In this document: piece after piece, positions 4,925 to 42,580 of the stretch
Position numbering within the stretch: the stretch's first letter is position 1
Layout of the letters: each line of letters begins with the position of its first letter
Assembly (NCBI GenBank): GCA_002269645.1
Contig: NIVC01004498.1
Location: forward strand, 1-44,087
Source: Macrostomum lignano
Lineage: Eukaryota
Direction of reading: 5' to 3'
DNA length: 44,087 nt
Notes under the pieces: model-generated
Seen by the model: the letters and a program-made list of their open reading frames with translations, nothing else
Told to the model about the DNA's origin: nothing
Databases searched by the model: none
Position numbers and translations under genes: made by a program

Positions 4925-4925
4925 C

Positions 4926-6207: not shown

Positions 6208-6352
6208 CAGAGCAGTCGCTGAAAATGCAGTCATGTAAACTAATAGTACTCGTAACTGATATTAAGCTAGGTAAACTTCAGAAGTAAAAAAAATATTAGA
6301 TCAGAAGACAAAAAAAACAAATTGAAAGTTTCATACAGGTATTAATACGAGC

Positions 6353-7016: not shown

Positions 7017-7021
7017 TAGAG

Positions 7022-7150
7022 CCGGGGTAGACCAGCTCAGCGGTAAAAGCGTCCGACCCTTCGCGGCCACATTCATTTGGGGCTTGTGTGTGCAAGAAGG
7101 GGGAGTTTGTCCTGCGATTTACAGCCACGAGGACCAAAGACCACCCTGTG
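7022..7150 (+). mobile_element. Possible tRNA-derived SINE head fragment
   Basis: CCAGCTCAGCGGTAAAAGCGTCCGAC resembles a tRNA 5' half/A-box; no clear B-box or cloverleaf. Confidence 0.3.
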
Positions 7151-7400
7151 GAACATTATATATTAGACTATGATTTAAAATACGAGATCCTTTAACGAGC
7201 TAGTGGAGAAAAAGTTAAAACAGCATAAAATATTGTAAATTACAGCTTGCGGCTGCATGAAAGTCATTTAATTAGGGTTAGGACATAAATGGTAAAGTTT
7301 TTAACATTGACAGAGAAAGAACATTGCTAGTAGAACTAATTATACAGCTTTGATGGCCTTTCCAGATAACTTTTGACAACCAAACTGACTATCCTCAATA

Positions 7401-7557
7401 CGCTGCCTGCGAGGGGCCCCGGCTGCGTGTTGCCCTAGTTTATGAACCATAGACTGCAAGTGATAAAAAGCTACCCACATTGAGAATCGATCGTTTTATT
7501 ACTTTCCATGGTTCATAGACTATGGCAAGAAGCAGCCAAGACCCCTCGCAGGCAGCG
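7401..7557. mobile_element. 157-bp MITE-like foldback flanked by TA
   Basis: Arms CGCTGCCTGCGAGGGG...TATGAACCAT and ATGGTTCATA...CCCCTCGCAGGCAGCG (about 50 bp, imperfect); TA at 7399-7400 and 7558-7559. Confidence 0.75.
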
Positions 7558-7989
7558 TATGCAGGATTCTCAGTTAGGCTGACAAAAGCTATAGTAGCGT
7601 TGTATGTTGGCAAAGCACTACCGGGTGAGGATTTACCATAGACATTCTCGGCTTTTTGTACGGAAATTTAATCTCGAATTATCTGCAGTTAAAGGACCCA
7701 CTCCATCCATTTAGATAGAATAATTGCCATCCCAGTGGTCTGCTTTCCCAAATTGATTCTAATTACTCAGCCACAAAATTAGTACATAAAAATTTATATT
7801 AATGCACGTTAGTAGCTATATGGGTTAAAGATTTTTGTAAAAATCTAGTTACAAAATTGCGTAGAACAATATCTCTAGCATGGAAAACTGTAGTAGTCTT
7901 AAAATCGTAGAAAGACCCTGGCCTACACTCGCCAGTTCGCAATTCATATATTTTTTTTACAAATAGTTGTATCAAAATCAAATGAAAAC

Positions 7990-9310
7990 GGTACCCAGGC
8001 CAAGCAGCGTCCCGGAGTCACTTGCGTTGTCCCAGAGTCGTTTCAGATGACATGGGTAAAATTGGAAAGAAGAGACTCCAAACGACTCTAAAACGACGAG
8101 ATGTCACGGTACAAGTCGCCAAAAGTCAGCAAAGAGTTATGCAAGAGTCATTTTAAAGCAGCATTATATTGTCCGCGACTTTGGGGCAACGCAAGTGACC
8201 AGCTGGGACGCTTTTACGACTCTGGGGGCCCCCGTAGAGTCGTATCTAGGGCGAGCTAGAGTCGTTTTAGAATCACTGAGTTGCGTCACATAGTAAAATA
8301 GAATCTTATTTCGCATTTATAACAACTCGATTGTCTATTTAGTGTACTAGACCCGTTAAAACGTTACCATGACAAGAATCGCTAAAGAGTCATTGCAAAC
8401 AACTCTCTAGTGACTTTAGTGACTCTGTGGCAACTCTGGTGACTTTTTAACGACTCAAACGACTGCAATGCGACGGAGAGGCGACTTTTGCGTTAGTTGC
8501 AGAACCGTAAAAGTGTTGGCGCTGAACTTTCTCTAGAGATGTGACTCTGATTCATCAAGTGACTCTATAGTGACTCTAGAACGTCTCAAACACGACTCTA
8601 CGGCCCCAGAGTCGTTTCAGGGTCGCAGGTAATAAAACGCTCCAAAGCGTTTTATTGGATTGGCGATTCTTGAGCGGCTTGACTTTTTGGCGGCTTGTAC
8701 CGTAATATCTTGTCGGTTTAGTCGTTTAGAGTCACTTCTTTCTTATTTTACCTGTGTCATCTGCAACAACTCTGAAACGAATATGGGGCGACGCAAGTGA
8801 CTCTGGGCCTAGGTGCTGTTCTCATCGGGTAGGCCAAGAAGCATCCCAGACTCAGTTGCTTCTCCCAGAGTTGTTTCAGAGTCAGTTTGTGCAGATAATA
8901 GATAAAATAAGAAAAAAGTGACCTCTAGACGACTCTAAAACGACGAGATGTCACGGTACAAGTCGCCAAAAAGTTGTAAAAGAGGCAGTCGCCTACGAGT
9001 GAGAGTCAATTTGAAGTGTTTTATTGTCTGCGACTCTGGGGCGACGCAAGTGACCTATGACGCTTTTAAAATGACACTGGGGCCGCAGAGTCAGATCTGA
9101 GGCGTGCTGGAGTCGCCGTAGAATCACTGAGTTGCGTCACTTAGTAAATTGAATCGACGTGTAGTGTACTTAGGTCAAACTCTGACACAACGACTCTTGG
9201 ACGGCTTTTTGCGAATCTTTTACAATTCTGCAACTGGTTTGAGCCTTATCTGTCGCACCACAGTCGTTTGAGTTGTTTGCAGTGACTCTAGCGATTCTGG
9301 TGACAGTAAC
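7990..9310. mobile_element. Cluster of a GACTC/GAGTC-rich dispersed non-autonomous repeat family in inverted and direct arrangement
   Basis: Segment about 8000-8290 recurs inverted at about 8550-8830 and direct at about 8830-9130. Segment about 8350-8520 recurs inverted at about 9170-9310, 11380-11580 and 24660-24790. Confidence 0.7.
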
Positions 9311-9394
9311 CTTTTCAATGTGAAACGTTATGCAGGAAACTATCTTGAAAACCAACTTCTTTTAGCTGTCCAAGAACTCCTAGTAAACATAGCG

Positions 9395-12317
9395 CTAAAA
9401 GTCCTTCAGCCTGGCCATATCGGCTCGAAAACCTTCCCAGATCTGTTCGAGCACGCCAGGCTGCGTCAGAATATCGATGCCAGTCATAGCCAGCGCCTTG
9501 GCCTGAGTCAGGGCGTGCGGCTGAGCAGCTGGGTCGCCAGCCAGCTCAGCAAAATCGCGTGTGTGAATAGCCGCCTGGCCACCAACTGAGAACATTGGAT
9601 GAACTGACGGCACCTCGTAGCTCACGTTGCCCATGTCTGTGGAGCCGATAACCGCATCTGGCTCTGATTCTAGGAAAGGCTCATTCAATCTGACCAAGTT
9701 CTTCGTGTAAAATTTAATCAAAGACTCGTTGGTTATCAAGTTACTGTTGGCGTGTCCGTTTATCTCGGACTGCCAACTGCAGCCAGTGGCGAGAGCGGCA
9801 GCGTCAAAGCAGGCATCCACTTTGCGACGCAAAACGGCGAGTTCTTTGTCTGTTGGAGCGCGGATGTAGTACTCTGCGGGAGAGCAGGTACATCTGGGAT
9901 AGGCAAACTTTCGTTTGGAGTGTCTATTTATCTGTTTGGATGATTGATTCGAACTTTAAAACGGCCCTTTTAGGGCTATTATCGCTTTGTGATTTTAACT
10001 GTAAAATGGCCTTTCTGGGACTCTACTTGCTTTGTGATTTTATATGCAAAGTGTAAATAAAAATTCCTAAATGTCGACAACTTCTAGAATGAAAACCCTG
10101 TAATGACAATCAAACTTAGAGGGGTTGGAAATATATGGTGCGCACTTGAAGCATTTAGTTTTGTAAATCAGGAAAACAGGGACTCTTTTATGTACTATGT
10201 CCAATGCATCTTGATGAGTCACCTGGTAAGACATTGACCGCGAGAGAGTGGCAACAGGTCAATTCCGCTGTGAAAGACTAACCGCCCTGATCTGAGGTAG
10301 AAATACAATGGGGCGCTTTTATACAAGACCTAAAAATCGCATCGCCGAAAGTCAAATTAGAACGGTCAATTCACAAGACCTGAACTTCACAAGACCTAAA
10401 CTTCACAAGATCCTAACTTCATAGGACCTAAACTTCACAGGACCTGAACTTCATAGGACCTAAATTTTACAAATCCAAAAACTTTACAAGACCTAACATT
10501 CACAGAACCTAAATTTCATAGACCCAAAACTTGACAGGACCTAAACTTCAGAGAAACTAAACTTCATAAGACCTAAACTGTATAGGACCTAAATTTCACG
10601 AGACCTATACATCACAGGACTTAGGATTCACATGGCTTTCTTTTTCTACTATTAGTAGGCAATGCTAGGCATGTAAGATTCGATAAAAATCAAAGGGACA
10701 TGACTTATTTTTAAACCGGATCATCGCGTACCCAGCACAGCTCGCTCAGGGATGATGTTGGGCCGCTGGCCGCCCTCCTTCACGATGCCGTGCACCCGCC
10801 AGTCCGGCCGCATCTGCTGCCGCAGGTTCGACACGCTTTGGTAGGCCGTCACGGCCGCGTCAAGGGCGTTGAGGCCCTCCCAGGGCGAGCCGGCAGCGTG
10901 GGACGCCTTGCCGGTGAAGGTGACGTCGAATGCCTGGATGCTAAGCGCACGCGGACGAGCCACAGTCAGCTTGTAGGGGTGCGCCATCATTGCGACGTCC
11001 ACATCGGTGAAGAATGCCGATCTGCACAGTGTTCAGCGGCGTGTGACATGCGCTTCTTAGTCGTTTAAACTTAAAGAGTCGTTTAAGCGTCATTGCAGTT
11101 GACATAAGTAAAATAGGAAAGAGTCTCTAAATGACTCTAAAACGATGAGATGTTCCGGTACAAGCCGTCAAAAAGTCATTAACGAGTCCGTCAAGATTCA
11201 TGAATTACCTTCAAGCATTTTATTGCCTCTAGGGCGACGCTGGAGCAACGTTATAACGACTCTGGGGTCGTAAAGTCGTGTTTGAGGCGTGCTAAAGTCG
11301 CTGTAGAGTCACTGAGTTGCGTTTGAAGCGCAATTGCATCGCATGATGAATTGAGCCGCATCTCTAGCAATAGTAAGCGCCAACACGATTCTTGTATGAC
11401 TCTTGCGCAACTCTTTTACGGTTCTGCAACTGACGTAACGCGCTAATTGTGACGCAAAAGTCGCCTCTCCGTCGTATTGCAGTCGTTTGAGTCGTCAAAA
11501 GTCACAAGAGTTGCCGCAAAATCACTAGCAATGGCTCTTTAGCGATTCTTGTCATGGTAACGTTTTTAACGGGAAAGTACGAGTAGCATTGCGATAGTAT
11601 CCGAATACAATGATAAAAACCATCGAGATTGAATTTCTTAGAATGTGCCGCTTCAAAAATAACACCAAGATTAAGTGTCCGAATTTTGCGCACACACTTC
11701 TTTTCCTGTCACAGTACCAGTATGTCATAACCTCTATGTTCTAAAACTATTATCGATAATTACTGTTTCTTATTAAAGTCATATAAATTCTTCACAACTC
11801 ACTGAACCAACAGAGCAAGATATATTACAGAGAAAATGCTATTGACTAGATTCCGTGCGTGGCCCCACCAAGTCTTAGTAGTCGCACCTGATCATGTCGA
11901 TCTTTCCGCCGTGTGCCTCCTCTGCCGGCGTCCCGAGCACCGTGACCCTGCCGGCCAGGCCGCCCGCCTCCATGGCCGCCTTGATGCCCAGACCGGCGCC
12001 CACCGCCACCTCGGCGATCAGGTTGTGTCCGCAGGCGTGCCCGATGCCCGGCAGAGCGTCGAACTCGCACATCACGGCGATGTGGGGCCGCCCGGCGCCA
12101 GCAGACCCGAACTCGGCCTTGAACCCGGTGTCCAGCACGAAGTGCCGCGTCACGCTGAAGCCTGACGACTCCAGCGTCTCCGTCAGCAGCTGGTGCGCCA
12201 TTCGCTCCTCCAGCGCCAGCTCCGGGTTCTGCCACAGGCGGGAACTGACGCCGAGCAGCAGCTCGTGCGACTCGTCGATCTTGGCGGCCGCGACATCCTT
12301 CAGCTGCGCGGCTCCAT
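9395..12317 (-). CDS. PM20D2: PM20D2-like dipeptidase, copy C (3 exons: 12317-11888, 11021-10732, 9873-9395), with an apparent 1-nt deletion at codon 4
   Basis: M20 motifs are intact. Splices KIDMI-R-SAFFTD and ERAVL-E-YYIRAP are in frame. The homologous ATG (ATG GAG CCG CG CAG CTG) is 1 nt out of frame, and the spliced length of 1199 nt is one short of 1200. Confidence 0.8.
10370..10625. repeat. Degenerate 16-bp intronic minisatellite
   Basis: Unit about CACAAGACCTAAACTT, roughly 15 copies. Confidence 0.85.
11070..11600. mobile_element. Copy of the GACTC-rich dispersed repeat inside the copy C-specific intron
   Basis: GACTCTAAAACGA.GAGATGT..CGGTACAAG.CG and GTCACTGAGTTGCGT match 8080-8290; CTTTAGCGATTCTTGTCATGGTAACGTTTT is the reverse complement of 8359-8390. 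Confidence 0.7.
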
Positions 12318-12884
12318 CGGGACAGCGGCGAGTAAGCCGCTGAAAGTTGGTCAACACAATTTTGTGCCAGAGAACCGCAACTGTGCCTGCATGCAGTGAC
12401 AGCCAGTGGTAACATGTGCAGTACCACAGGGTCTATCTATGCAGTTCATGCAACGTATAACGTGTGCTACAAAAACACACAGGCCGTTCTGTGGGAATCG
12501 GAACTTGCAAGTATTTGGTTTTACGAGTGTCTGTACTCTGTAGATAAAGATATCTAGATAAAACAAAGCCAGCGGAATGAGTGCCCCGCACCGAAGCTAC
12601 AGTGCTTGGCATAATCGAAATGACACACGCATTCAAGAGAATCGAGGCAAGTTGCAAGTATTGAATATTAGTCAAGTTTTCTGATATCTTTAACGTTTCA
12701 ACCTTAGTAGGCAGTTGGAGGAACTGACACGTGAAATGTATTAGCTTTTATTGAAATCATAAAATTGCAGTTACTATTTCAAAGCCAAAGATCAATACAT
12801 ATTAAATAACGGTTTTCGAAAGAAACTCTGAGCGTAACAAAGTTTATCTTAGTCACCACGAGAATTGTTAGTATCTTAGAGACT

Positions 12885-15213: not shown

Positions 15214-17962
15214 TCAGACGCCCATATCCGGCTGCGGTATGCACAAATTGTAGTGCACATCGGATTTAAAAAACGAGGCGGATTTCCAACCGCACCAGCC
15301 GTCTTTGCTGAGCTGCTTGGCGTCCGTCTCGGAGCCGGTGTAGTGCGGATCCAGCACTAGCCAGCGCACCTCGCCGCTGGCCTCGTTCAGACTGCAGCCA
15401 AGCAGAGTGTGGGCGTACTGGCCGCCGCCAATCATCACCGGGCAGCCGATGGTTTCGAAATGATGCAACAGCAGACGGGCCTGGCATTGTGTTGCAGCAT
15501 GAGATGAAGAGGGCAGTGAGCTGCTTCTTGTATAGTGGCTGTGCTAATCTGTCTGGCTAACTGCTCCCTAATCTGGCTATCTGCTCCATAATCTGTCTGG
15601 CTATCTGCTCCCTAATCTGGCTATCTGCTCCCTTATCTGTCTGGCTATCTGCTCCCTAATCTGGCTATCTGCTCCCTAATCTGGCTATCTGCTCCCTAAT
15701 CTGGCTATCTGCTCCCTTATCTGTCTGGCTATCTGCTGCCTAATCTGGCTATCTGCTCCCTAATCTGGCTATCTGCTCCCTTATTTGTCTGGCTATCTGC
15801 TCCCTAATCTGGCTATCTGCTCCCTAATCTGGCTATCTGCTCCATAATCTGTCTGGCTATCTGCTCCCTAATCTGGCTATCTGCTCCCTTATCTGTCTGG
15901 CTATCTGCTCCATAATCTGTCTGGCTATCTGCTCCCTAATCTGGCTATCTGCTCCATAATCTGTCTGGCTATCTACTCCATAATCTGTCTGGCTATCTGC
16001 TCCCTAATCTGTCTGGCTATCTGCTCCATAATCTGTCTGGCTATCTGCTCCCTAATCTGTCTGGCTATCTGCTCCCTAATCTGTCTGGCTATCTGCTCCA
16101 TAATCTGTCTGGCTATCTGCTCCATAATCTGTCTGGCTATCTACTCCATAATCTGTCTGGCTATCTACTCCCTAATCTGTCTGGCTATCTGCTTCCTAAT
16201 CTGTCTGGCTATCTGCTCCCTAATCTGGCTATCTGCTCCCTAATCTGGCTTTGTTTTCTAATCTGGCTATCTGCTCCCTAATCTGGCTACCTACTCTAAT
16301 CTGGATATCTGCTCCCTAATCTGGCTATCTACTCCCCAATCTGGTCCCATTTTCAAATTCGAAAGATCAGGAAGAAGCTCATGAAAGACCTCACCTGTTC
16401 AGGCAGGTCAACACCCCGAGACACGTGCACCAGACGGGCGGCAACTCCGGTTAAACTTTTCAACGCGTAGGACAGTTCCACAGCGCCAAGCCACTGCCTA
16501 GATCCGATCAATGACTTCGGCTTGTCGCCCAGATCAACCAAGGCTCGTTGGATTGCTTCGTGTTTAGGCACGGGAGCGTCTATAACACCGCGACGGCGCA
16601 ACCAAGACACGATGGTTTGCAGAGATCTGTGGAGAGGATTATTTTTCCCGTCGGAAAAATGGAGTATCGAAAATATGAATTGTCGGAGTTATGAATTTCT
16701 GAGGATATAAAGAGTCGGAGATGTGAAGTGTCGGAGATCAGAAGTGTCGGAGATCTGAATTGTCGGAGATCAGAAGTGTCGGAGATCTGAATTGTCGGAG
16801 ATCAGAAGTGTCGGAGATCTGAATTGTCGGAGATCAGAAGTGTCTGAGATCTGAATTGTCGGAGATCAGAAGTGTCGGAGATCTGAAGTCGGAGATCGGA
16901 GTCGAAGACATGAAGTTGGAGACAAGAAGTCGGAGATATGAAGTGTCGCAGATATGAAATTGGAGATGTGAGTTGTCGGAGACATGAAGTCGGAGATAGT
17001 CCATTCAAATTCAACAAGACCAACCTGTAGGCGCAGCCCCAGCCGGAGTCGTGGAAGCCGCAGCTGCCATAGTGATAATAAGCATAATCTCCTTGCACTA
17101 GCCGGGTGACCCAAGGCGCTGTATCCGGCTGCGGCTTGGCCTTCAAATGCGGATTAATCACTAGCCTACCAGACTCATCTTCATCAGCTCCATTTCCAGC
17201 ATCACTAGTAGACAGCAGCTGGTCTGCAGCGAACTTCAGTCGCATTGCTGGCCAGAACACTGGTCGAGTTTTCGGCACGCCAAGCTGCTCGTGCCAGCCG
17301 TGACGCAGCTGACGCAACTCGTCTGTGTCTGCGCCAATGGGATAAAACACCCGAATCAGGCGGGGCCGGCCGCCAACTAATGGTTCGGTTAATCGATAAT
17401 AATTAGTATCTACAGGCCGGCGCCACTTGGCAACAGTTAGGCCTAGCTGACGGACATAATCCACCAGACCAGCGTCTAATCTTTGCCAGACTTCATCGTC
17501 CTCGAAATCGCCGCCAATCAACAATGGACAAAGATAATTGATTTTTATGCCAACGCTAACGCAGCTCGATCTATTAGTACCGCTACTAGATACCGTAGCA
17601 ACCGTTGCTATGGGAACAGTACAATCAACATCGATTGTACCGTGACTCCAACGGCAATACAATTCAGTTGGCGAGTCTACAGATGCCGAATTGGAAGAAT
17701 TAGCGGCGAGCAGTTTAGCTAAAGAAGCTCCATCGGATACTAACATCGATGCTCGAGCGGAGACCAATCTTCGCCTGTCATTTTCGAATCTTTCTACAAA
17801 CGATTCCGGCAGCGCGGCCCAGCTAGACGCGTCAGCGGTCAGCCAGCAGGTGACGCGAATGTACACTAGACGGCGATGTTTCGCGTCGCTGACGCCGCCT
17901 TCAAATGACACTTCACCTCCGGTTGGGAGGTCGTCGTAGAGATCCACAGCTTGGTCCGACAT
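15214..17962 (-). CDS. UFSP2: Ufm1-specific cysteine protease 2 (3 exons: 17962-17025, 16626-16395, 15480-15214; 478 aa)
   Basis: YYHY...DSGWGCAYRSLQTIVSW (catalytic Cys), PVMIGGG, DPHYTG (Asp/His) and GWCGWK..F..YNLC. GT-AG introns join in frame; total 1437 nt. Confidence 0.93.
15545..16345. repeat. 20/24-bp intronic minisatellite
   Basis: CTAATCTGGCTATCTGCTCC and CTAATCTGTCTGGCTATCTGCTCC variants interspersed. Confidence 0.95.
16680..17000. repeat. 16-bp intronic minisatellite with a 32-bp dimeric higher-order unit
   Basis: GTCGGAGATCAGAAGT alternates with GTCGGAGATCTGAATT. Confidence 0.9.
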
Positions 17963-18064
17963 GCAAGATTAATTGACTGCTTGTTGCAAAACTCTTTGTA
18001 TCACGAAAGGCTTAGAATTATAAAAATTACTGGGGTAGATACTCACAACTTCAGGATTTGAGTA

Positions 18065-26200: not shown

Positions 26201-28287
26201 TATAGTGATCTAGAGTCTACAGACAATCTTTATATAGTGATCCAGGGTGTACAGACAATCCTCCTAGGCTCTATAGGACTTAAAGACAATACTAAATTAT
26301 AATTAATTTTAATGTTACAAAAAGAACGCAGCCATCTTACCGCTTCCACTCATTTCCATCAGCACTTTAATCTGTTTGCTACGATTTTCATTAGCATCAC
26401 CATCACTACTAGCTGCTTTAAGCGTTCCAGCCAGACTGAATGAGCCAACGCTAACACTGTGACAAGAGTTCACAGTCAGTTCAATTGAATCGGTTCCAAG
26501 ACTTCGCCGACGCTGTCTCTGATTAATCTTCGAGGCCACAGCCGTAGCTAAATGAGAACACCGAACTAACAGCAGCATAGAGCCATCCCAATCGATTAAG
26601 CTAGCCCTAACTATCGGCAATTTCAACACAACTAAATGCACCATTCGAGCTGATAGATTCAATCGAACTGGACCGTCGTGAATCAGTCGCATAGCCACAG
26701 ACGAATTACTATTAGTAGTAAACAAGTCTAGTCGCAGTCTTTCTCCAATAGGATCGAATGCTATTCGCCGACCAATAAGAATGACGGAATTTGAACTATC
26801 CGAAGCCAAGGACAGGCCCGTTGGTATAGTTGTTGCCAATAGCAACTGCACTGGATTAATAGCATCCGATAATCTGTGCAATTTAACAAATTTTTCCACT
26901 AATTGTTTATGATACTGACGTCGGTAGGCAAGAATCCTTGTCTCTTTCTCCGGTATTGCCGACATTGATAGCAGAGCTTTGCAAAGTGCCACTAGAAGGC
27001 CTCGATCTGATGACCTATCAATAGACTGAAGCGTTATTGACCAGGCCAATAGGCGAATAATAGTCGAACTATTGTCATCAATTTCACTGTTGAATAATAA
27101 TTCACTAATTAACCAATGTTGGTTATTGATTTTTGAATGACTGTCATTTCCTTGACTATCATTTTCGTCAATATGTTTTGGACAATGCAGACTAGTGTAC
27201 ACGTAGGCAACTATCACTGTTGCTATCCGATTGTTAGTTGCAATTTTTATTGCCTGACAAGCTGATCCAGTGTACAGGTGAGCATTCCTAAGCTGAATTA
27301 TTCGGCTAACAATGCTTCGAGACAATGATGTCAATGTTGATGGGAATAGCGCTAGCAAGGCTGGCTCACCTGTTATAAGTGCAAAAAGGGGAGATGGGTG
27401 ACAAGGTAGACAAAAAAGGGGAGATAGGAAAGAAAAGTGGAGAGAGGGTAGACGGGAGAGGAGTTAGTAGAAATGGTGTAGAAAGGAGAGAATAGATTCG
27501 GGAAGGGGAGATGGGAGAAGGGAAAGTAGGGAGAGTGGCCCTTGTTTCTCCGCTGTGTCAACAGACTAACCTGCAGCTAAGGAAAGTGGAGGGGAGAGAA
27601 TAGAGATTGAAGATATATATCATGGTTTCAAGAATCAAGCATATAAACATTAGAAAAAACAAACTATAAAGTGCATCTTTTGAAGTGCATATCAGCTCAT
27701 CAAAGCGCAGTCTTACCTGGAGAGTCAGCCACACTGCCTTCGCAGTGATCTGATAGAATATTGACATAGGCAAATCCTTCAGTCAGAGACAATGACGTCA
27801 CTTTCGCATTGATAAATCTTCGATAAGTAGAGCATTGTCCAACAATGCAGTTACAGTTTCCAGCCTCACTGCTACTAGAGGAAATGCCAATTTGCAAAGA
27901 AGCTGGTGCTACCAGATTTTGTAAACAGTCTGGGAATTTTGCAGCATTATTATGACCACTATTAAGCTCAAGTCGCCAACAGCCATACTCAGAACCTGAA
28001 GCCATTGTTAGCTTCACCGGCTTGGTAGGCAATCCATCAGACAAATCTAGCCAATTTCCAATTGCCAGTTTATTGTAACATTGCACTAATTGTTGATAAC
28101 AATCATTGTAACTATTCAGTTGGTTGCTACCACATGTTACAATAACATTCTCTGTTCGACAGAAACAATATCCTGCACTATTGACTCTAGTTGGTTGCAA
28201 TTTAAGTACCAAACAGCATGGCTTCAATTTTATTGGATGAGACACAGCAACAAGATAGCCAGATGGACCACAGGGCTGTAAATGCAA
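23295..28287 (-). CDS. CTC1: Divergent CST complex subunit CTC1-like OB-fold protein, 5' incomplete (exons 28287-27717, 27369-26341, 25464-24857, 24184-23981, 23702-23295; about 939 aa)
   Basis: Five exons join through GT-AG introns with matching phases (1,1,0,0). By-eye similarity to recalled human CTC1: VLLQDGTQSASLSCRG vs LLVEDGTAEAVVTCRN, IIQLRNAHL vs CLQLQDVHL, GYLVAVSHPIK vs GSLVRLSALVK. The exon structure is well supported; the identity is moderate. Confidence 0.62.
24346..24656 (-). mobile_element. tRNA-derived SINE with a CORE-like central domain
   Basis: Minus strand: GGGGCTGTAGCCTAGTGGTTAGAGCG (A-box), GGCTTCGATCCC (B-box-like), TGTGTCCTTGAGCAAGACAC...CTCAGCTGTAAAATGGGT (CORE/MIR-like), then an (ATT)n tail. 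Confidence 0.8.
25615..26265. repeat. 30/32-bp intronic minisatellite
   Basis: Unit GTGATCTAGAGTCTACAGACAATCCTCATATA and a shorter variant. Confidence 0.96.
27385..27600. repeat. GA-rich low-complexity intronic tract
   Basis: Purine-rich plus strand (pyrimidine-rich on the gene strand). Confidence 0.7.
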
Positions 28288-31259: not shown

Positions 31260-31972
31260 TGTGCATAGGTTGTTTATGGCCCAAGATATTGCAAGAATAC
31301 GCCAAGCAGATTTAGCAAGTGCAGCACAATAAAAAATCATCTATGCAGCAAACAAAAATCACCATGAATCTTAACAAGATGCCTGCACCAAGCAGATCTG
31401 CAAGGTGTTTAGCAGGTGGGGCTTGAATGACATCCTAAACTGCCTGGTTGCTGAGGATGAAAGCTGGCTCTACCTGGATGGCAAGGGCAGCAAAGCAGAC
31501 AATTGCTGCTGGCTAGGAGCTGGGGACTCTAGGGCAACTGTGACCAGAAAGTCCATCTTGGACTAGAAGACCATGCTGCTAGTAGCCTTCATGCCAAATG
31601 AACAAGTCTCCATCCGCACAACTCCATTGAACTTTGTCTGGCACAGTGGCGACCTCTGGCACACTCTCCAGTCAAATCCAATTTACCTAGACGAGGTTTT
31701 GTGGTAGATGGAAACCATATGGCTTCACACCTGAAGGCAGTTTCTAAATTTCTGCTTTATGGCAAGTGAATATGCTCTGACAGAGTCCCTACAGCTTGGA
31801 CTTCAACTTTTCCTGTTCCTGTTCAAGATTCCTGTTCAAATGGCTGAAAGCTGACTTTTCCAAGAAGAGTTTTGCAACCTACAAAGAGGTCAAACAGGCT
31901 GCATTGCACTGGTTATGGCAGTTGGAGGAAAAACATCTGTAGGCTGAGGTGGACAAGCTGTATGTGGTATAT
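31260..31972 (+). mobile_element. Second decayed mariner-like transposase remnant, ending at the LTR element insertion
   Basis: LVAEDESWLY (IVTGDETW-like) at 31444-31473, KTMLLVAF, SPYSLD and EVKQAALHWL. Confidence 0.7.
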
Positions 31973-32836
31973 TGTAGAGTGTTCTACCTCCCGTTAAAGG
32001 AGGAAAAAGGAAGATAATCGTATAATACTACTATAAGTAAGTAAGTACACGCATGTGCGCCTAAGCTTTGAATGAATCACGCTACCAGAAAAAGATGTTA
32101 CCAGAATAATACGCCATGAGCCATTTTCCCCTTTTAGCGCAACACGTGAATTGTCATGATACTATTTTGGATCAAAAACTTGTCTATAAATACAAGCGAT
32201 CTGAAGCGGTACCGGAGCCATTCTCCCCACGGAAGAGGAGCGCTCCGAAGAGGAAGCCTTAGGAGGACTTCCTGATCTACCAAGTCAATCGAGACTCGGT
32301 CGAGTTGTTGCGGTAAGCCTTCCTTATTTGCGCCCGTTGTGTTAGAGACGTCTCGCTCAAGTCTATTGAGACTTGAGTCTAATTGAGTCTGTTGAGACTC
32401 TTGAGTCTGTTTAGACTCCATTGGTTGCAGTCTCCAGAAGGACTGCCCCTGATAGATCTTAGAGGACTATCAGTGGTTTCCGGAGCTATACCTAGAGTGC
32501 ATAGAGGCACTGCTAGAAGAAGGAGGCTTAATTTAGACCGCAGTTTGGCGCAGGGTACCCATTGTTGCTACGAGGCCTCTGATTGGTCCTGACGGAAGAT
32601 ACCGGCCGGAAGAACTTATCAGAAGTACAAGAGGAACCAGGACCAGAGCAACTGAAGAATCAAGGCGCCTGATCTACGAGATCTACTGACAAGTTCCTAG
32701 CGAGAACTACTCAAGAAATTCAAATCCGGATTAAAGGTAATTGAATACCTTCGTTTGACTTACTGGGTTGCCTAGCTGTTGAGCTAGAAGTGATTGTTCC
32801 TTGATTATCGAAAGTCGGGTAATAAGGAACACATCA
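31973..32836 (+). repeat. 5' LTR (864 bp)
   Basis: TGTAGAGTG...CACATCA, directly repeated at 41718-42580. Confidence 0.97.
32185..32192 (+). promoter_or_regulatory. Candidate LTR TATA box
   Basis: TATAAATA about 210 nt into the LTR, followed by an ATG-free leader. Confidence 0.5.
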
Positions 32837-32838
32837 AT

Positions 32839-32856
32839 TGGTGATCTCGCCCTCTC
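32839..32856 (+). other. Primer binding site (possibly tRNA-Trp-like, imperfect)
   Basis: TGGTGATCTCGCCC two nt after the LTR end; TGG is complementary to the tRNA CCA. Confidence 0.6.
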
Positions 32857-33552: not shown

Positions 33553-36183
33553 ATGGCGCGGCGCAATCCAACGGTACACAGAGACATCAAAGAAACGGTC
33601 GGTACTTTCTCGATGGAGAAAGATTTTAACACATTTGTCGACCATTTTGACCTGGTATGTAGGGAATACAACCTACAAAATCCAGAGAAGGCACAGCTGC
33701 TGCCACCTCTTCTCCAAGGTACTGCGCGAGAAATTTACGGCAAGCTGGATGCGGCAACACAGCAAAATTATCCAGCACTAATCATTCAACTGCGCGCGCA
33801 TTTCAACCGTTGCGGCACAAACAGATCAGTGCTGCTGCACAAGTTGCATAACAGAAGGATGCAAGCAACAGAATCCTTCCTCGCCTTTGTGGACGATATC
33901 CGCCAGATAATTAAGGCACTGCATCAGCCACCGCTGCAAGCTGCGGACCAACCACCACTGGGAGCGGCAGAATTGGCCGCCAGAGAAAGACAACGATTGA
34001 TGGATCGTGAACAAAACCTCATCCTGCACGTAATAAACAACGCACAGCCGTCACTTCGGGATAGACTTTTGCGTGAAAATATCGAAACCGAAGAAGACCT
34101 TTTGCGTTGCGGAATGCAATGGGAAGCCAGTGCCCCATTAATGACGACAGGCAACAATGAAGTGCAGAAACTGACGCAGCAACTAAACAAGTTAATGCAG
34201 CACCAGACAGCTGCTATCGCCGAACAAAAAAGACGAAATGAACAAGCCTCAGCCAGATGTTACTACTGCGGACAAGAAGGACATTATCAGATTAATTGTC
34301 CTCATTGGTCAACAAGATACGACAAGCCGCGACAGATATTCAACAATCAGAAGCCGCAGAAACCATGGCAGCAATATCAAAATCGCCAACAACAAGGCAT
34401 AAGACGCTTCGGAAATGATAGACGCTTCGGAAATAATGACCGCTCCGGAAATGATGGCCGCTTCGGAAACGAAGGCCGCTTCAGAAGTAATGGCTACAGG
34501 CCACGCAACGTCAGATACACACAAAGACAGCCGACGCAAGCAATGCCACGATACGCGAATGCCATCACGTACACACCGGAAAATGAACAGCAAGAACAGC
34601 AAGTGTTCACAATTGACGACTTGGAAATGGACTTCACAGTCCCGGAACTTGACATCAGCTTGATCGAAAAGAAGACGACGCACGAGGACAACACTGACAA
34701 CACAGAAGAGACGAATGAAACCGAAATGATCAAATTAAAAGAGACCACCGGAGACAGCAGAGAAAACAGGAAGAAAGTAAATCACAAGACAAGGGAGGAG
34801 GCGGAGAGCGACATCGGCAACGAAGAAAAGATGAAAACCGGCGAAGAAAACAACTATGAATCGACAACAGTGGATGACGACAAAACGAGCATGAAAGACA
34901 AAGAAATGAAAGAAGAAGAAGAATGTAGAAGTTACGGCAACGACCACGACTGCGAGGTGCGTGATGACACGAACGACTACCAAGCCGAAAGAGGAATGCA
35001 GGAAGAACCGAGAGCGGAGAATCTAAGTTCCGACAGCGATCAAGGCTACGAAATACAATGGAAAGATGAAGAAATGGAAAAAGAACAGGTGAAAGAAAAG
35101 CCGAGTTCCGACAGCGACGAATGCTACGAGATCCGATACAAACGAAATGGTGAAGCCTATATTCAAACGGTCGACTACAAGACAGAGAAAAGATACCAAA
35201 CGCAATGGAGTGAAACAACGGAAACATCGGAAGAAGCTGCAGACGAAGATAATGAAATAACCAAAAAGCAAAGCGAATCAGAAGCCTTCCGCCTGGATCA
35301 GCCAATGGAACAACCGAAAGAATATGATGCGGACATGGAAGATAACGAATGGCGATCGCAGCCAATGCCAGCAAGGACAACGGCAAAATCCAAGAAGTGG
35401 AAAAACTGGCTATTCTGGATCATCGTGATACTACTGATAGCAGTAGTCGCCAAAGCAACGGCAACGGAAAAGCCAATTCCAATGATTTGTCCAACGGATG
35501 CGCATATCCAACCGATGATCTACAAGATACCAACCGACATCAAATGCAGTTACTTCAAGACAAACCAGACAAAACCAAAGAAGATTACACTCGATCTCTA
35601 CAAGGCTAACATCAAGAAGCATCGACAACACGGGATAGTATGCTTCAGAGACAAGCACCTGGTGGAAAAAGTTTGGCGCGGACAATGGAACCGGATCCGA
35701 TTTAAACAACATGAGCTACATGTGTCGCACGCGGAATGCCTACAATGGAATCAAACACTATTTTCAAAGGATGGTGAACTGGAACCAGATGAGAAGGTCG
35801 GCAACGCACAGCTGTTCAGAACAAAGAATTCAGCCAACGGTCGATATATTCACTTCTTCGGAAAATGGAAAGAATATATGGCACGCAACAGCTACTTGAT
35901 CAGAAATATTCCATTCTACTACAATCCGTACGAGAAAATGGAATCGTTACAGCTGCAACTAAGCGAATGTCGATACAGTGAAGGATGGTGTCCAACGCCG
36001 ATTCTACGGAAGGAAGAACTACACAGTCTACCACTGAGTCCAACATATCATCAAGACTATCGATGGCAGATTGAGCACAGAGCACAATCACACTATGAGG
36101 AACCGTACAAATCACGACAATATTTCTTCGCATGGAAAGTAGAGCCGGAAATTGACTGCAAGCTTCAAAAGTATCACAAGTGA
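33553..36183 (+). CDS. gag: Gag (capsid-like, CCHC knuckle) + acidic spacer + internal signal peptide + N-terminal half of Env
   Basis: Ty3-type Gag, CYYCGQEGHYQINC at 34258-34299, basic-hydrophobic-AxA segment KSKKWKNWLFWIIVILLIAVVAKATA at about 35386-35463, then a Cys-rich ectodomain. Confidence 0.9.
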   Translation: MARRNPTVHRDIKETVGTFSMEKDFNTFVDHFDLVCREYNLQNPEKAQLLPPLLQGTAREIYGKLDAATQQNYPALIIQLRAHFNRCGTNRSVLLHKLHNRRMQATESFLAFVDDIRQIIKALHQPPLQAADQPPLGAAELAARERQRLMDREQNLILHVINNAQPSLRDRLLRENIETEEDLLRCGMQWEASAPLMTTGNNEVQKLTQQLNKLMQHQTAAIAEQKRRNEQASARCYYCGQEGHYQINCPHWSTRYDKPRQIFNNQKPQKPWQQYQNRQQQGIRRFGNDRRFGNNDRSGNDGRFGNEGRFRSNGYRPRNVRYTQRQPTQAMPRYANAITYTPENEQQEQQVFTIDDLEMDFTVPELDISLIEKKTTHEDNTDNTEETNETEMIKLKETTGDSRENRKKVNHKTREEAESDIGNEEKMKTGEENNYESTTVDDDKTSMKDKEMKEEEECRSYGNDHDCEVRDDTNDYQAERGMQEEPRAENLSSDSDQGYEIQWKDEEMEKEQVKEKPSSDSDECYEIRYKRNGEAYIQTVDYKTEKRYQTQWSETTETSEEAADEDNEITKKQSESEAFRLDQPMEQPKEYDADMEDNEWRSQPMPARTTAKSKKWKNWLFWIIVILLIAVVAKATATEKPIPMICPTDAHIQPMIYKIPTDIKCSYFKTNQTKPKKITLDLYKANIKKHRQHGIVCFRDKHLVEKVWRGQWNRIRFKQHELHVSHAECLQWNQTLFSKDGELEPDEKVGNAQLFRTKNSANGRYIHFFGKWKEYMARNSYLIRNIPFYYNPYEKMESLQLQLSECRYSEGWCPTPILRKEELHSLPLSPTYHQDYRWQIEHRAQSHYEEPYKSRQYFFAWKVEPEIDCKLQKYHK

Positions 36184-36416
36184 AGGAGGACTACTGTCGA
36201 ATACGTTTTTGGCAAAGCAGGAGACTTGGCCTTGACGTTTCAAAAGAAGCCGGTTGAACAGGAACTCAAATGCAAGGATACGGACAAGACGCTATTCATC
36301 TCGGAGCAAGAAATACCAGTCTACGTGAAGGATGGTGACAAACAAACCTTCTGGCAATCATAAACGGAACATATCAGCAACAAGAGAGACAACGACGCGA
36401 CATAGAATGTCCACGA
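36184..36416 (+). pseudogene. env: Env middle segment bridging the two ORFs (after the in-frame TGA; frameshift near 36335)
   Basis: Frame 1 continues RRTTVEYVFGKAGDLALTF...C...LFISEQEIPVYV. Frame 3 is open from 36339 (QTNLLAIINGTYQQQERQRRDIECPRL) into the 36417 ORF. Confidence 0.75.
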
Positions 36417-39400
36417 TTGGTGTCAAACCGACTGCTGTCAGCAAAGATCACGGCGCTGGATCACAACCTGCATAACCAGCTTAACCACTTACATCGGTCA
36501 CTGGTCCAGCTAACTTGCAAAATGCACGCAATCAACTTAAATTATGCCAGACAAAACTACTATGTCAACCCTACGATGACTTTTCGTAAAATCACCGGAA
36601 TGACGAACGTTTTGGCAGTTCCAATATACGAGCATCTGTTGATATACAAGTGCACGCCGATACAGCACTTTAACATCTTGCCGTCAAACACGTCAACAAC
36701 CTGCTACGATAAGCCAAGGATTGAAGCGTTCTACGAAGGAAAACGAATTCAGGGATTCTTGGACACGGTACACAACATCATCGTTGGCACCGCAATACCG
36801 AGACCTTGCACCACGGCAGTAAACTACTATCAACTGGACAATGCACTACACGTCATCAAAACAACTGGAACGACAGCAAACGTCACAGAACCGGAAGTAA
36901 TCGTCGACGAAAACTACGACATGGAGGATTTGAAAATCCGATTCAACAGAACGAAGTATACGCCATTCGCCGATATCCAACTTGACGAGATAACACCAGG
37001 ATGGACGATCAACGACTTCTTGCAAGCGTTCATCACCCAACGCAAGATGATTCACCAGCTGTTCACAAGAAAGGACAAAGGAACCGGGACAGGAAGATTT
37101 CCCGTCCTTGTTTCAATGGACAGCGCCATCAAATCATTTTGGACAAATAGCTTCTGGGAGCTGCTCAATGGAAGAGGCAGTCTCTATCAAGGATTCATCT
37201 TCTACGGTGCTTGCATTGTGTGGATTGTCACGGCAATCTTCATCATTTCATCGATCGTACGGTGCTTCAGTCAAACTTGTCCAAGAGCTAAGAAGACAGT
37301 GAATGCCATAATGCAAAGAACGACAACGGAAAGCGACAACAGTTTAGAACTAACAGAAACTGCACATTGTGAGGTTCAAGGGCAACCGACACTAGCAACG
37401 CGGCTATATCCATCGATTCCGACAACACCAACGGCACCAAGGATACAACCACCCAACTATCAAGCAGAACAGCACGAGCCAAAATGGCCGGAAAACTACG
37501 TCTGTACGCTACACGCCGAGATTGGCAAAGCAATGGCTCAGGTCATTGTCAACAACTTGCCATGTCGAGCACTACTGGATTCAGGCAGCTCGATCACAGT
37601 CATCTCGCAACAATTATGCAACAAGCTACGACTCGCGGTACGACCAGCAGCAATCGCAGTTGCAGGAGCAGGAGGACATTCACTCAACATCCTAGGAAAA
37701 GCAGATATCGACTTGAAAATTGCTAATAAACAGCTGACGGTCCCGACGTACATCATCGACAGACTACCAAACCAAGACGTCATCGTTGGAATCGACACGT
37801 TCAAGCAGCTTCAACTACCATTGACCTTCGACTTCAACAAGCAAACGTTTAGGATCGACACGGTGGAGCAACCGCTGATCAACCAGATTCGAGTACTACC
37901 GAAAGTAACTCTGCAGCAAGATGTCATTATCCAGCCTGAAAGCGCATGCTGGGTCAGAGCGAAAACGACCAGCGCGGCAGATGAAGCAATGATATTTGAT
38001 CCACACAGGAGAGTCACGGCAAAACATCAAATCATGATGCCTACGGCACTAGTGCTGGTTGCAAAGGATAAGCAACTGCCAGTACAAATCTTCAACCCGA
38101 ACACAGAAACGGTTCATCTACGACAAGGAATGTGCATCGGTCATCTCAACACCCAAGCATCGGTTATGCTGATTGAACAAGCGACTCCACGACTAACAGA
38201 GGAAGAATTTCAAAAGAAGATCAATTTGGATGACAGCCCGATTACGGAACAGCAAAAGAGGAAAGTTCGACAGCTGTTGTGGAAGTACAACGAAGCCTTC
38301 TGCCATCATGATTACGACATCGGACGAGCCAAGGACATCAAACAGGAAATCAAACTTCTGCCGCACACGGAACCAATTCAGTGCAAGCCGTACCCGATCG
38401 CCAAGCATCTGCAACAACACTTTGACGAAATCATCGATAAAATGCTAAAGCACGGCATCATCAGCAAAGCTATTTCGGCTTACTCCTCACCGTGCCTACT
38501 GGTACAGAAGAAGGAGACAAACGAAAGACGACTCGTATGCGACTTCAGACTGTTGAACAAGTACATACCGACGGATCAGCAAAGCCTACCGAAGATCTCC
38601 GAACTACTAGCAAAGCTCAACACGGCAAAATTGTTCACGGTGTTCGACCTACGTCATGGATTTTGGCAAATTGAAATCGAGAAAGAGTCACGACAGTACA
38701 CGGCTTTCAAAACCTACAATGGACAAGTATACGAGTACAATCGATCGCCGATGGGACTTAGCAACAGCCCAGCAACGATGAGTCGACTAACAGCATACAT
38801 GCTAGCAGGATGCACGAACCTGCTGCACTATGTCGACGACATTTTAGCCTACGGAGAGGATTTCGAGCGACTCTACGAAGCTACGGAGAAGGCCCTAGCG
38901 CTCATTCAACGCCAAGGTCTGAAGCTACAACCAACTAAATGCAAATTCTTCCGAGACAACGTGCGTTACCTGGGACATCAGGTGACAGCCAAAGGAATCT
39001 CACCGGACCCAGACAACGTGGAAAAGGTGAAGAAGTTTCCTACGCCAACCAGTATAACGAAGGTCCAATCATTCCTTGGACTTGCGCAATACTTCAGGAA
39101 GTTCTTACCTAACTTCGCAAAGACAGCAAAGCCACTGTACGACCTGCTCAAGTTCGACAAATGGAAGCAAGACAACTGGACACAGAGACAACAGGAAAGT
39201 TTCGACGAAATCAAACGACAGCTGACATCAGACGCACTGCTACAGCATCCGGACTTCGACAAGCCCTTCATCATCGAGACAGACGCCTCAGGAACGGGAC
39301 TCGGAGCAGTCCTACTACAGGAAACCGAGGACAAGAAGGAACGACCTATTGCTTACGTCAGTCGAGCACTCAAACCAAATGAGACAAAGTGGTCAGCTAC

Positions 39401-41042
39401 GGAACGAGAGCTACTAGGAGTCTTGTTCGCCCTGCGACAGTTTCATTACTACATCTATGGTTCTCCAATACAGACGATAGTACGCACGGATCATGCACCA
39501 TTGACCTACGTCGTAACTACAAAAGGACAGACCAACAACCGACTCATCAGGATGACACTCAAGATCCAGGATTACAACTACAAACTCGTCTACAAACCAG
39601 GAATTACCAACAAAGCCGCGGACGCCCTGTCAAGAGCCTATGAAGTCAACGCCATTCATCCAATCCCTAACATCAAGGAGTTGGTGGATGAAACCGAGCG
39701 CGACAACTTCTACCAAGCGGTTAAAGACGACGACAAGAACATCAAACTCAGTCCCATGGAACGAAAATTCCTACGCAAGCAACGACAACACCTAACAATC
39801 AATAAGTCACGGCTCTACTGGATGAGCGACAATAAACCCAAGATCTACATACCATATTCGTTTCGGCAAGCAATTCTCAACGAGCTACACGACAACCCAC
39901 TCGCTGGACACCTGTCGGCAGCAAAGACCATCGCGAGAGTGGAACAATACTACTTTTGGCCAACTATGTACGGCGACATCAAGCAGTATTGCAACAACTG
40001 CCATTCATGTGCTGCATCAAAGACAGGACGACGACAGAAACCGCAGCTACAGTCCATTCCGAAGTCGACTACAATGGACTGTCTAAGCATCGACATCACC
40101 GGACCGCTACCACCGAGCTGTCTCCAGGGCATCGCCTACACCTACATTCTAACCGCCTTGGATATCTTCTCGAAGTTTGCTATCGCCATACCGATACCGG
40201 ACATCACAGCTCAGACAGTGGCAATGAGTTTCTTCAACGAAATCATTTGCAAGTACGGCACGCCGAAGAACCTCACATCGGACAACGGATCGCAGTTTAC
40301 ATCGCAACTGTTTCAGCAAGTCGTAAGGATTCTCAACATTACGCAGATCTACACATCGACCTACAATCCGAAGGCAAACATGGTTGAACGGTTTCACCGC
40401 AACCTGCACGAGATGATTACACATTTCGCGCACCAACAGCCGGAAGACTGGATCATCTACCTGCAATCTGTAACAATGGCCTACAACAGCGCTATTCATC
40501 GATCAACGGACAATACGCCATTCTTCCTAATGTTTGGACGAGACTTCCAACCGCCGAATCTGCTCGCACAGCAATTGCTACCATCGCAGTACGTGGAAGT
40601 ACCGACTTCCATTCAGAAATTCGTCACGCAACTACACCTCGCATGGAAGATCGCCAAGCACAACATTGACAACCAGGTGGCTCTGACCACCGGCAACGAC
40701 GCGAGATCGACAACCCTGACGGCCGGCGACATCGTCTACCTACACTACCCGCCACAGCAGACGCATAAACATGCACAGAAGTACAAAGGACCCTATCGAG
40801 TGGTCCAACTAACGTCACCAACAACGGCACGCCTGGCTAATGTACAAGATCCACATCAGCACCAGTTCTACGTACACATTCATCGACTAAAGAAGATCAA
40901 CACTGACACAGCGACGTTTCTACCGACATTAGACAACGCTGATCGCACGCGTTCAACGAACCGCCACATCGCGACGAAGCACGAGGAGACTCAAACGACA
41001 GATGTGAGCCAGCCACATGGCTACAACCTACGACCACGCTAG
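36417..41042 (+). CDS. pol: C-terminal Env (coiled coil, TM) fused to Pol (protease, RT, RNase H, integrase)
   Basis: TM FIFYGACIVWIVTAIFIISSIV at 37194-37259, LLDSGS at about 37572-37589, YVDD at 38829-38840, IETDASG, HDNPLAGH...CHSC, IDITGP/DNGS/VERFHR and GPY. Confidence 0.97.
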   Translation: MVSNRLLSAKITALDHNLHNQLNHLHRSLVQLTCKMHAINLNYARQNYYVNPTMTFRKITGMTNVLAVPIYEHLLIYKCTPIQHFNILPSNTSTTCYDKPRIEAFYEGKRIQGFLDTVHNIIVGTAIPRPCTTAVNYYQLDNALHVIKTTGTTANVTEPEVIVDENYDMEDLKIRFNRTKYTPFADIQLDEITPGWTINDFLQAFITQRKMIHQLFTRKDKGTGTGRFPVLVSMDSAIKSFWTNSFWELLNGRGSLYQGFIFYGACIVWIVTAIFIISSIVRCFSQTCPRAKKTVNAIMQRTTTESDNSLELTETAHCEVQGQPTLATRLYPSIPTTPTAPRIQPPNYQAEQHEPKWPENYVCTLHAEIGKAMAQVIVNNLPCRALLDSGSSITVISQQLCNKLRLAVRPAAIAVAGAGGHSLNILGKADIDLKIANKQLTVPTYIIDRLPNQDVIVGIDTFKQLQLPLTFDFNKQTFRIDTVEQPLINQIRVLPKVTLQQDVIIQPESACWVRAKTTSAADEAMIFDPHRRVTAKHQIMMPTALVLVAKDKQLPVQIFNPNTETVHLRQGMCIGHLNTQASVMLIEQATPRLTEEEFQKKINLDDSPITEQQKRKVRQLLWKYNEAFCHHDYDIGRAKDIKQEIKLLPHTEPIQCKPYPIAKHLQQHFDEIIDKMLKHGIISKAISAYSSPCLLVQKKETNERRLVCDFRLLNKYIPTDQQSLPKISELLAKLNTAKLFTVFDLRHGFWQIEIEKESRQYTAFKTYNGQVYEYNRSPMGLSNSPATMSRLTAYMLAGCTNLLHYVDDILAYGEDFERLYEATEKALALIQRQGLKLQPTKCKFFRDNVRYLGHQVTAKGISPDPDNVEKVKKFPTPTSITKVQSFLGLAQYFRKFLPNFAKTAKPLYDLLKFDKWKQDNWTQRQQESFDEIKRQLTSDALLQHPDFDKPFIIETDASGTGLGAVLLQETEDKKERPIAYVSRALKPNETKWSATERELLGVLFALRQFHYYIYGSPIQTIVRTDHAPLTYVVTTKGQTNNRLIRMTLKIQDYNYKLVYKPGITNKAADALSRAYEVNAIHPIPNIKELVDETERDNFYQAVKDDDKNIKLSPMERKFLRKQRQHLTINKSRLYWMSDNKPKIYIPYSFRQAILNELHDNPLAGHLSAAKTIARVEQYYFWPTMYGDIKQYCNNCHSCAASKTGRRQKPQLQSIPKSTTMDCLSIDITGPLPPSCLQGIAYTYILTALDIFSKFAIAIPIPDITAQTVAMSFFNEIICKYGTPKNLTSDNGSQFTSQLFQQVVRILNITQIYTSTYNPKANMVERFHRNLHEMITHFAHQQPEDWIIYLQSVTMAYNSAIHRSTDNTPFFLMFGRDFQPPNLLAQQLLPSQYVEVPTSIQKFVTQLHLAWKIAKHNIDNQVALTTGNDARSTTLTAGDIVYLHYPPQQTHKHAQKYKGPYRVVQLTSPTTARLANVQDPHQHQFYVHIHRLKKINTDTATFLPTLDNADRTRSTNRHIATKHEETQTTDVSQPHGYNLRPR

Positions 41043-41162: not shown

Positions 41163-41537
41163 ATGGGCAACGCACTGTCAAAACAGGCGCCCCAGCCTCA
41201 GCAGCTATATGACTGCCCGATATGTTTAACTGATGACTTGGCTGTCAAGCCACCGACTATTTGCATCAACGAACATAAAGTTTGCGGACAATGTTTAAGC
41301 GATTCACATTATATTCAGCCATGGCAGAATTGTCCCCTCTGTAGAGATAGTTTGCGACAATGTGCCTATTGTTATTCTTGGCGCACGTTTCAATATTGTA
41401 ACCACCAACATTTTATTTGCATGCACTGTTTGAAGCAAACCGCTAGTAGGGGCGTTATAGGATGCCCCTTATGTAATAGTATGCCGCGAGACTGCACGTT
41501 TCGAAAGTGGTGTCGGATCAAACCTGATGCCACTTGA
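41163..41537 (+). CDS. Accessory tandem C3HC4 RING protein with a predicted N-myristoylation signal (124 aa)
   Basis: MGNALSK; RING1 CPIC..CINEHKVCGQC..CPLC; RING2 CAYC..CNHQHFICMHC..CPLC. Confidence 0.85.
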   Translation: MGNALSKQAPQPQQLYDCPICLTDDLAVKPPTICINEHKVCGQCLSDSHYIQPWQNCPLCRDSLRQCAYCYSWRTFQYCNHQHFICMHCLKQTASRGVIGCPLCNSMPRDCTFRKWCRIKPDAT

Positions 41538-41717: not shown

Positions 41718-42580
41718 TGTAGAGTGTTCTACCTCCCGTTAAAAAAGGAAAAAGAAGATAATCGTATAATACTACTATAAGTAAGTAAGTACACGCATGT
41801 GCGCCTAAGCTTTGAATGAATCACGCTACCAGAAAAAGATGTTACCAGAATAATACGCCATGAGCCATTTTCCCCTTTTAGCGCAACACGTGAATTGTCA
41901 TGATACTATTTTGGATCAAAAACTTGTCTATAAATACAAGCGATCTGAAGCGGTACCGGAGCCATTCTCCCCACGGAAGAGGAGCGCTCCGAAGAGGAAG
42001 CCTTAGGAGGACTTCCTGATCTACCAAGTCAATCGAGACTCGGTCGAGTTGTTGCGGTAAGCCTTCCTTATTTGCGCCCGTTGTGTTAGAGACGTCTCGC
42101 TCAAGTCTATTGAGACTTGAGTCTAATTGAGTCTGTTGAGACTCTTGAGTCTGTTTAGACTCCATTGGTTGCAGTCTCCAGAAGGACTGCCCCTGATAGA
42201 TCTTAGAGGACTATCAGTGGTTTCCGGAGCTATACCTAGAGTGCATAGAGGCACTGCTAGAAGAAGGAGGCTTAATTTAGACCGCAGTTTGGCGCAGGGT
42301 ACCCATTGTTGCTACGAGGCCTCTGATTGGTCCTGACGGAAGATACCGGCCGGAAGAACTTATCGGAAGTACAAGAGGAACCAGGACCAGAGCAACTGAA
42401 GAATCAAGGCGCCTGATCTACGAGATCTACTGACAAGTTCCTAGCGAGAACTACTCAAGAAATTCAAATCCGGATTAAAGGTAATTGAATACCTTCGTTT
42501 GACTTACTGGGTTGCCTAGCTGTTGAGCTAGAAGTGATTGTTCCTTGATTATCGAAAGTCGGGTAATAAGGAACACATCA
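41718..42580 (+). repeat. 3' LTR (863 bp)
   Basis: About 4 differences from the 5' LTR seen by eye. Confidence 0.97.

Follow-up and report, generated by a model that had tools for sequence, protein, structure and literature searches.

Gag-Env-Pol 'errantiviruses' that carry an Env of the HSV/gB type have been published for Platyhelminthes, Nematoda and Bryozoa (Chary and Hayashi, PMC13524379), and the supplement to that work catalogues a flatworm family, Platyhelminthes_Rhabditophora_Mlig_errantivirus_2, with 16 copies listed. According to the main text, the ectodomains alone were studied and the mechanism of transmission outside Drosophila is called elusive; the terms 'late domain', 'ESCRT', 'PTAP', 'cytoplasmic' and 'budding' have 0 occurrences in that text. 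No report of late domains in Ty3/gypsy Env tails was found in the literature searched, which covered few subscription journals and did not include Sacco et al. 2022 (J Gen Virol).

We have analysed a stretch of 44,087 nucleotides of Macrostomum lignano DNA (contig NIVC01004498.1), hereafter the window. It harbours an element that shares with Mlig_errantivirus_2 its gene order, gB-type Env, 864-nt LTR, 12-nt primer-binding site (PBS) and occurrence in many near-identical copies. As both the PBS and the LTR length match the catalogued entry, the element family is already known; what is new relative to it are the motifs in the Env tail.

Architecture of the element

The locus has the make-up of an errantivirus in the operational sense (Table 1): paired LTRs, 99.4% identical over 870 nt by self-BLAST (4 mismatches, 1 gap), a PBS, a 4-bp target duplication (ATAT at 31969-31972, before the 5' LTR, and again after the 3' LTR), Pol domains in Ty3/gypsy order (Pfam), and a gB-type Env situated between Gag and Pol with a hydrophobic helix on each side. 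Pol is in frame with the Env tail. The ectodomain match to PF24664 (E 2.9e-5) lies below the curated cut-off; a structure model (pLDDT 56.5) of the Env from one natural open copy finds herpesvirus gB in a Foldseek search (E 7.6e-19, TM-score ~0.23).

Table 1 Features of the element, in window positions
Feature	Position	Strand	Basis or remark
5' LTR (TG...CA)	31973..32836	+	self-BLAST against 3' LTR
Primer-binding site (PBS)	32839..32850	+	12 nt, identical to PBS of the catalogued family
Gag	33553..35406	+	CCHC zinc knuckle 34258-34299 (Pfam zf-CCHC), acidic linker
Internal signal/anchor helix, Gag/Env junction	35407..35463	+	hydropathy peak 2.4
gB-type (class III) Env ectodomain	35464..37193	+	PF24664, structure model of open copy
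Env transmembrane helix	37194..37259	+	hydropathy peak 2.4
Env cytosolic tail, variable, ~75 aa	37260..37484	+	ends at conserved Trp-Pro before protease
LYPSI, ALIX-type YPx(L/I) motif	37404..37418	+	translation
PTAP, TSG101-UEV-type motif	37428..37439	+	translation
PPNY, WW-domain-type PPxY motif	37449..37460	+	translation
Pol: protease, RT (YVDD 38829-38840), RNase H, integrase	37500..41042	+	Pfam
Accessory ORF, two RING-like Cys clusters, pol/3' LTR interval	41163..41537	+	weak Pfam zf-RING
3' LTR	41718..42580	+	ATAT directly after

The window copy is frame-broken in env at ~36180-36350 (a stop at 36181-36183 ends the first frame, and the frame with the tail begins at 36339), so a whole Env cannot be encoded at this locus. 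Single open frames of 2,480-2,538 codons were identified in 10 of the 84 genomic protein matches, and of 40 loci scored, 14 others match a 1.2-kb query without a difference. These identical copies and intact single frames indicate that the family is young and that Gag-Env-Pol forms one polyprotein. Six of 30 loci (L017-L022) have a common frameshift in the part of the tail that precedes the motifs, which places Env out of frame with the tail and Pol; this reflects either shared descent or an assembly error.

Upstream of the protease, a Trp-Pro pair (37485-37490) is kept in 10 of the 11 env groups described below and in many distant homologues, and may mark the N-terminus of the protease or a cleavage site. 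The RING-like accessory ORF has counterparts of ~50% identity in sister families, and the genome contains 145 matches to it. Its start, Met-Gly-x-x-x-Ser, which we take to be myristoylation-like, is present only in the window's family; a matrix role like that of arenavirus Z was rejected, the myristoylation-like start being absent from sister families. The product could be a ubiquitin ligase that acts together with the tail motifs.

Outside the element, the minus strand of the window contains what are presumably tandem host genes or gene fragments resembling M20-family amidohydrolases (1360-12436) and exons that we take to resemble a UFM1-specific protease (15214-17968). Many tandem minisatellite arrays, with units of 16, 20-24, 23, 29-32, 36 and 43 nt, occupy positions 1-26300, and inverted-repeat elements occur near 8000-8800, 11100-11600 and 24700.

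The motif cluster of the Env tail

The first-pass annotation had read LYPxI, PTAP and PPxY motifs at 37404-37460 and placed them between the transmembrane helix and the protease. Translation bears out both points: LYPSIPTTPTAPRIQPPNY represents the translated letters of this interval, with all three motifs in frame in the ORF at 36339-41042, and 48 codons separate the hydrophobic helix (37194-37259) from the start of the cluster, with 39 codons between its end and the catalytic Asp of the protease (codon at 37578). The motifs fit the late-domain consensus P[ST]AP, YPx(L/I) and PPxY, the residues allowed at position -1 of YPx(L/I) being general background knowledge. No further matches to the three classes were found in the 916-aa and 1567-aa frames of the window. 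When the 75-residue tail was shuffled 200,000 times, P[ST]AP arose in 2.1%, (L/M/I/V)YPx(L/I/V) in 0.4% and PPxY in 3.2%, and at least two classes together in 0.07%. The segment also shows the other late-domain traits of cytosolic location (topology from hydropathy), conservation against a variable background and flexible position. The trait of Gag or matrix placement is absent: a motif scan of the Gag frame of the window's family for late-domain classes was empty.

Within the family, 37 loci supplied 17 distinct in-frame tails. Not one of the 10 core motif positions varies among them, versus 30 of the 60 other tail positions (Fisher p 0.002, each column counted as independent), and synonymous change was seen in 6 of the 10 core codons. 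Invariant residues combined with synonymous codon change point to constraint at the protein level. PTAP is invariant throughout; in PPxY both prolines and the tyrosine are fixed, x being N, T, I or G, and in LYPSI the Y, P and I are fixed while the first position is L or M.

Contigs of the probable RNA runs span the element, and those of three runs cross the tail ungapped, which demonstrates its presence there, the depth giving no expression level. These runs, none of them labelled RNA in its record, are probably RNA because a host intron (27368-27714, minus strand, GT-AG) is joined in three of the four runs. One database protein of the family (P0001) is devoid of exactly 33 residues holding all three motifs, and in the DNA the missing stretch has GT...AG-like ends. 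Among the joints listed in the four runs, whose contigs drop rare forms, no splice joint matched this gap; it is probably a gene-model artefact.

The host genome encodes a TSG101 UEV domain (E 2e-42 to the human protein), an ALIX with its own PSAP and a conserved V-domain stretch about the binding Phe, and, by domain matches alone, many HECT domains. ALIX is described as binding YPXL/I (PMC3244986). A structure model of the host ALIX V domain with a 40-aa tail scored 0.57, against 0.03 for the best of three controls; it is rated weak, with a partner pLDDT of 45-46, and its runs share at least 60% of contacts. In a calibration made without peptides, 51 of 78 solved pairs and 2 of 108 mismatched pairs passed, and passes at 0.60 or under, the range in which the ALIX/tail score of 0.57 falls, comprised 5 of the 78 solved pairs and all 4 passing mismatches. 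Moreover, as solved ALIX-peptide structures exist, the model may have passed by likeness to them.

Related and distant Env proteins

Env-bearing loci of the M. lignano genome were collected through protein and Pfam searches, with an in-frame tail required, which gave 34 distinct tails in 11 groups; the groups are related, not independent, and two of them are subgroups of the window's family. One interrupted env locus (L055) yields no tail. P[ST]AP is present in 9 of the 11 groups (shuffle mean 0.28) and the (L/M/I)YPx(I/L) class in 8 (shuffle mean 0.11); 10 groups have at least one class and one group has none. The expectation that the motifs would be conserved in related elements thus held for these two classes, which persist in far groups whose Envs are ~23% identical to that of the window. 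PPxY was found in the tails of two groups only, both subgroups of the window's family, to which the trio is confined. The order of the motifs flips, YPxI preceding PTAP in the window and P[ST]AP preceding YPx(I/L) in the sisters, with different spacing as well, and one sister-family copy has PNAP. Two sister groups without a tail PPxY (L051 and L053, at residue 590 of the long frame, and L052) have a PPPY or a PPAY elsewhere, in the cytosolic linker on the Gag side that precedes the signal anchor, at two different distances from the anchor. Because of this relatedness, and because the tails of the groups can be aligned only weakly, the pattern across them shows retention and not independent origin.

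For more distant homologues, a profile built from six natural Envs retrieved 489 proteins at E 0.001 or better, of which the best 150 were used. Among the resulting 151 proteins, 79 had a transmembrane call, and removal of 2 members of the window's own family and of 5 tails shorter than 40 residues left 72 tails. In these 72 tails from the best 150 of 489, P[ST]AP occurs in 9 (shuffle mean 0.69), the LYPxL class in 7 (0.54) and PPxY in 12 (1.46), so that each class exceeds all 2,000 shuffles, 8-13-fold, whereas five permuted control patterns gave 0-2 matches, which is chance level. In the same 72 proteins, the per-residue rate of motifs in the tails is ~10-fold that of the remaining protein. 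Still within the best 150 of 489, 51 of the 72 tails have no class, 7 have two and none has three, and a motif was seen in 3 of 23 further homologues without a clear transmembrane call.

Clustering of this same set (best 150 of 489) at 35% identity places motif bearers in 15 of 39 clusters. With one tail per 35% cluster, 4.7, 3.9 and 7.1 of 37 tails carry P[ST]AP, LYPxL and PPxY, respectively, versus 0.3, 0.3 and 0.8 by chance; at 30% clustering the LYPxL excess comes down to 1.2 of 18. The named hosts among 20 distant homologues checked were M. lignano and three nematodes. The Gag-side linker, taken as a within-protein control, had matches in 0 of 20 proteins, but the same 20 proteins had only 1, 0 and 2 matches in their tails, too few for the control to be informative. 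The sample consists of elements that are or may be Gag-Env-Pol; Gag-Pol-Env elements with a gB-type Env lie outside it, and word-based searches for homologues yielded little. One further protein (P0005) is a predicted stand-alone gB-type Env with its own signal peptide, no in-frame Gag or Pol and a PSAP at its end; its contig is short and pol may follow.

Proposed function and known systems

We consider it very likely, judging from conservation, that the motif residues have been selected for ESCRT and WW-domain binding. With less assurance, we favour as probable that the Env tail, and not Gag, recruits TSG101/ALIX and a NEDD4-type ligase for the release of enveloped particles. Intact members encode Gag, signal anchor, gB-type ectodomain, transmembrane helix, tail and Pol in one frame. 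By hydropathy, the ectodomain would enter the ER lumen while Gag and the tail-plus-Pol portion would stay cytosolic, leaving every precursor tethered to the membrane. The motif residues are under protein-level selection in the family and its relatives, and the Gag of the family has no such motifs. If the known motif classes are a guide, PTAP would bind host TSG101, LYPSI would bind ALIX and PPxY a NEDD4-type ligase. ESCRT-III would then be drawn to the neck of the particle assembling at the membrane, freeing an enveloped, Env-bearing particle whether from the plasma membrane or into endosomes; Pol would afterwards be freed by the protease, and the tail would stay on Env.

Enveloped budding by way of the Env tail, as proposed in the first-pass annotation, finds partial backing in the conservation among relatives, the motif-free Gag and the host TSG101 UEV, ALIX and HECT domains. 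On the other side, the full trio is family-specific, and 51 of the 72 distant tails (best 150 of 489) are motif-free. Because Gag, Env and Pol form a single frame, budding would presumably be coupled to incorporation of Env.

In the main rival account, the same motifs would send a membrane-anchored Env-Pol to multivesicular endosomes, and no particle with a capsid would be cut off at a neck. Env-Pol made in excess, as a 1:1:1 Gag-Env-Pol frame entails, would be either degraded there or exported in exosome-like vesicles. All the conservation evidence fits this account equally well, the motifs lie on a transmembrane tail, as they do in cellular cargo and adaptors, and not on Gag, and cellular membrane proteins use the same motifs for endosomal sorting. 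ELM also lists LYPxL/ALIX under endosomal sorting (PMC8728146). We nevertheless regard endosomal delivery as unlikely: the packing of two to three different classes is the viral late-domain pattern (PMC2958808 and, for bluetongue NS3, PMC6949946); a full gB-type fusogen, which requires an enveloped carrier, is retained; and the Gag-side PPxY of the sister groups suggests the whole assembly, not Env alone, as the target. Alternatively, YPSI could be a YxxPhi adaptor-binding endocytosis signal of the kind common in the tails of viral glycoproteins, with the proline motifs as by-products. The location in the tail is suitable and each YPx(I/L) instance also fits YxxPhi; however, the 72 tails (best 150 of 489) show no enrichment of generic YxxPhi (38 of 72 versus 31.6, p 0.06) but do show one of the narrower ALIX class, 8 of the 11 groups retain Pro at +1 together with L/M/I at -1, and P[ST]AP and PPxY would be left unexplained, which makes an endocytosis signal quite improbable.

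Also highly improbable is an origin of the cluster as a p6-like linker between Gag and protease that came down from an env-less ancestor and was stranded by the insertion of env, so that it would belong to Pol or Gag and not to Env. Its position just upstream of the protease is that of HIV p6, and the restriction of the sample to elements that are or may be Gag-Env-Pol favours such an origin. Against it, no in-frame motif was found within 130 codons upstream of the protease in any of 40 env-less-looking loci of 10 families, with a single off-frame PTAP; these loci were hand-picked among 150 scored of 2,387 candidates, the protease being placed by match coordinates and the absence of env judged from hydropathy and nearby zinc knuckles. 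Scission is not required by LTR elements whose assembly is cytosolic, and the predicted stand-alone Env mentioned above ends in PSAP, with the reservation that pol may follow on its short contig. Chance matches in a proline-rich disordered linker would suit a Pro/Thr-rich tail and short motifs, but were rejected, with next to no probability left to them, on the composition-matched shuffles, the permuted patterns, the balance of synonymous and replacement change and the recurrence across families.

Release by way of the Env tail, a budding design that is not known from retroviruses, can tentatively be extended to invertebrate Gag-Env-Pol retroelements in flatworms, nematodes and others. Here the fusogen tail, joined to Pol and co-translated with Gag, might be the late domain, and scission would take place only where Env is present; the motifs would be mobile within the tail or to the Gag-side linker, would have been acquired or retained by at least 15 of the 39 Env lineages sampled (best 150 of 489), and might mark those elements that still spread from cell to cell. 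In the main text of the published survey, the route by which env-carrying LTR elements spread outside Drosophila is stated as unknown (PMC13524379). Selected ESCRT-recruiting motifs would provide sequence evidence, independent of the fusogen fold, for continued use of host membrane scission. They point to host factors that are open to knock-down in a laboratory flatworm or nematode, which makes the route of spread testable. If true, late domains on a fusogen tail would represent a new placement of a textbook module.

Late domains of retroviruses, filoviruses and arenaviruses sit on Gag or matrix proteins. Unlike these, the motifs of the window are found on a fusogen tail within a Gag-Env-Pol polyprotein whose Gag is motif-free. 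Foamy viruses reportedly depend on Env as well as on ESCRT for budding, but differ from the window element in having the late domain on the capsid protein and a separate class I Env. The likeness to the retroviral, filoviral and arenaviral modules lies in the use of the same classes, grouped within a short cytosolic stretch of variable sequence and interchangeable in order (PMC2958808). Bluetongue virus NS3 is a transmembrane glycoprotein with cytosolic PSAP and PPRY that drives budding through TSG101 and NEDD4 ligases (PMC6949946). Though it is non-structural, no fusogen, devoid of YPxL and encoded outside a capsid/polymerase polyprotein, NS3 is the closest membrane-protein precedent found for the tail of the window Env.
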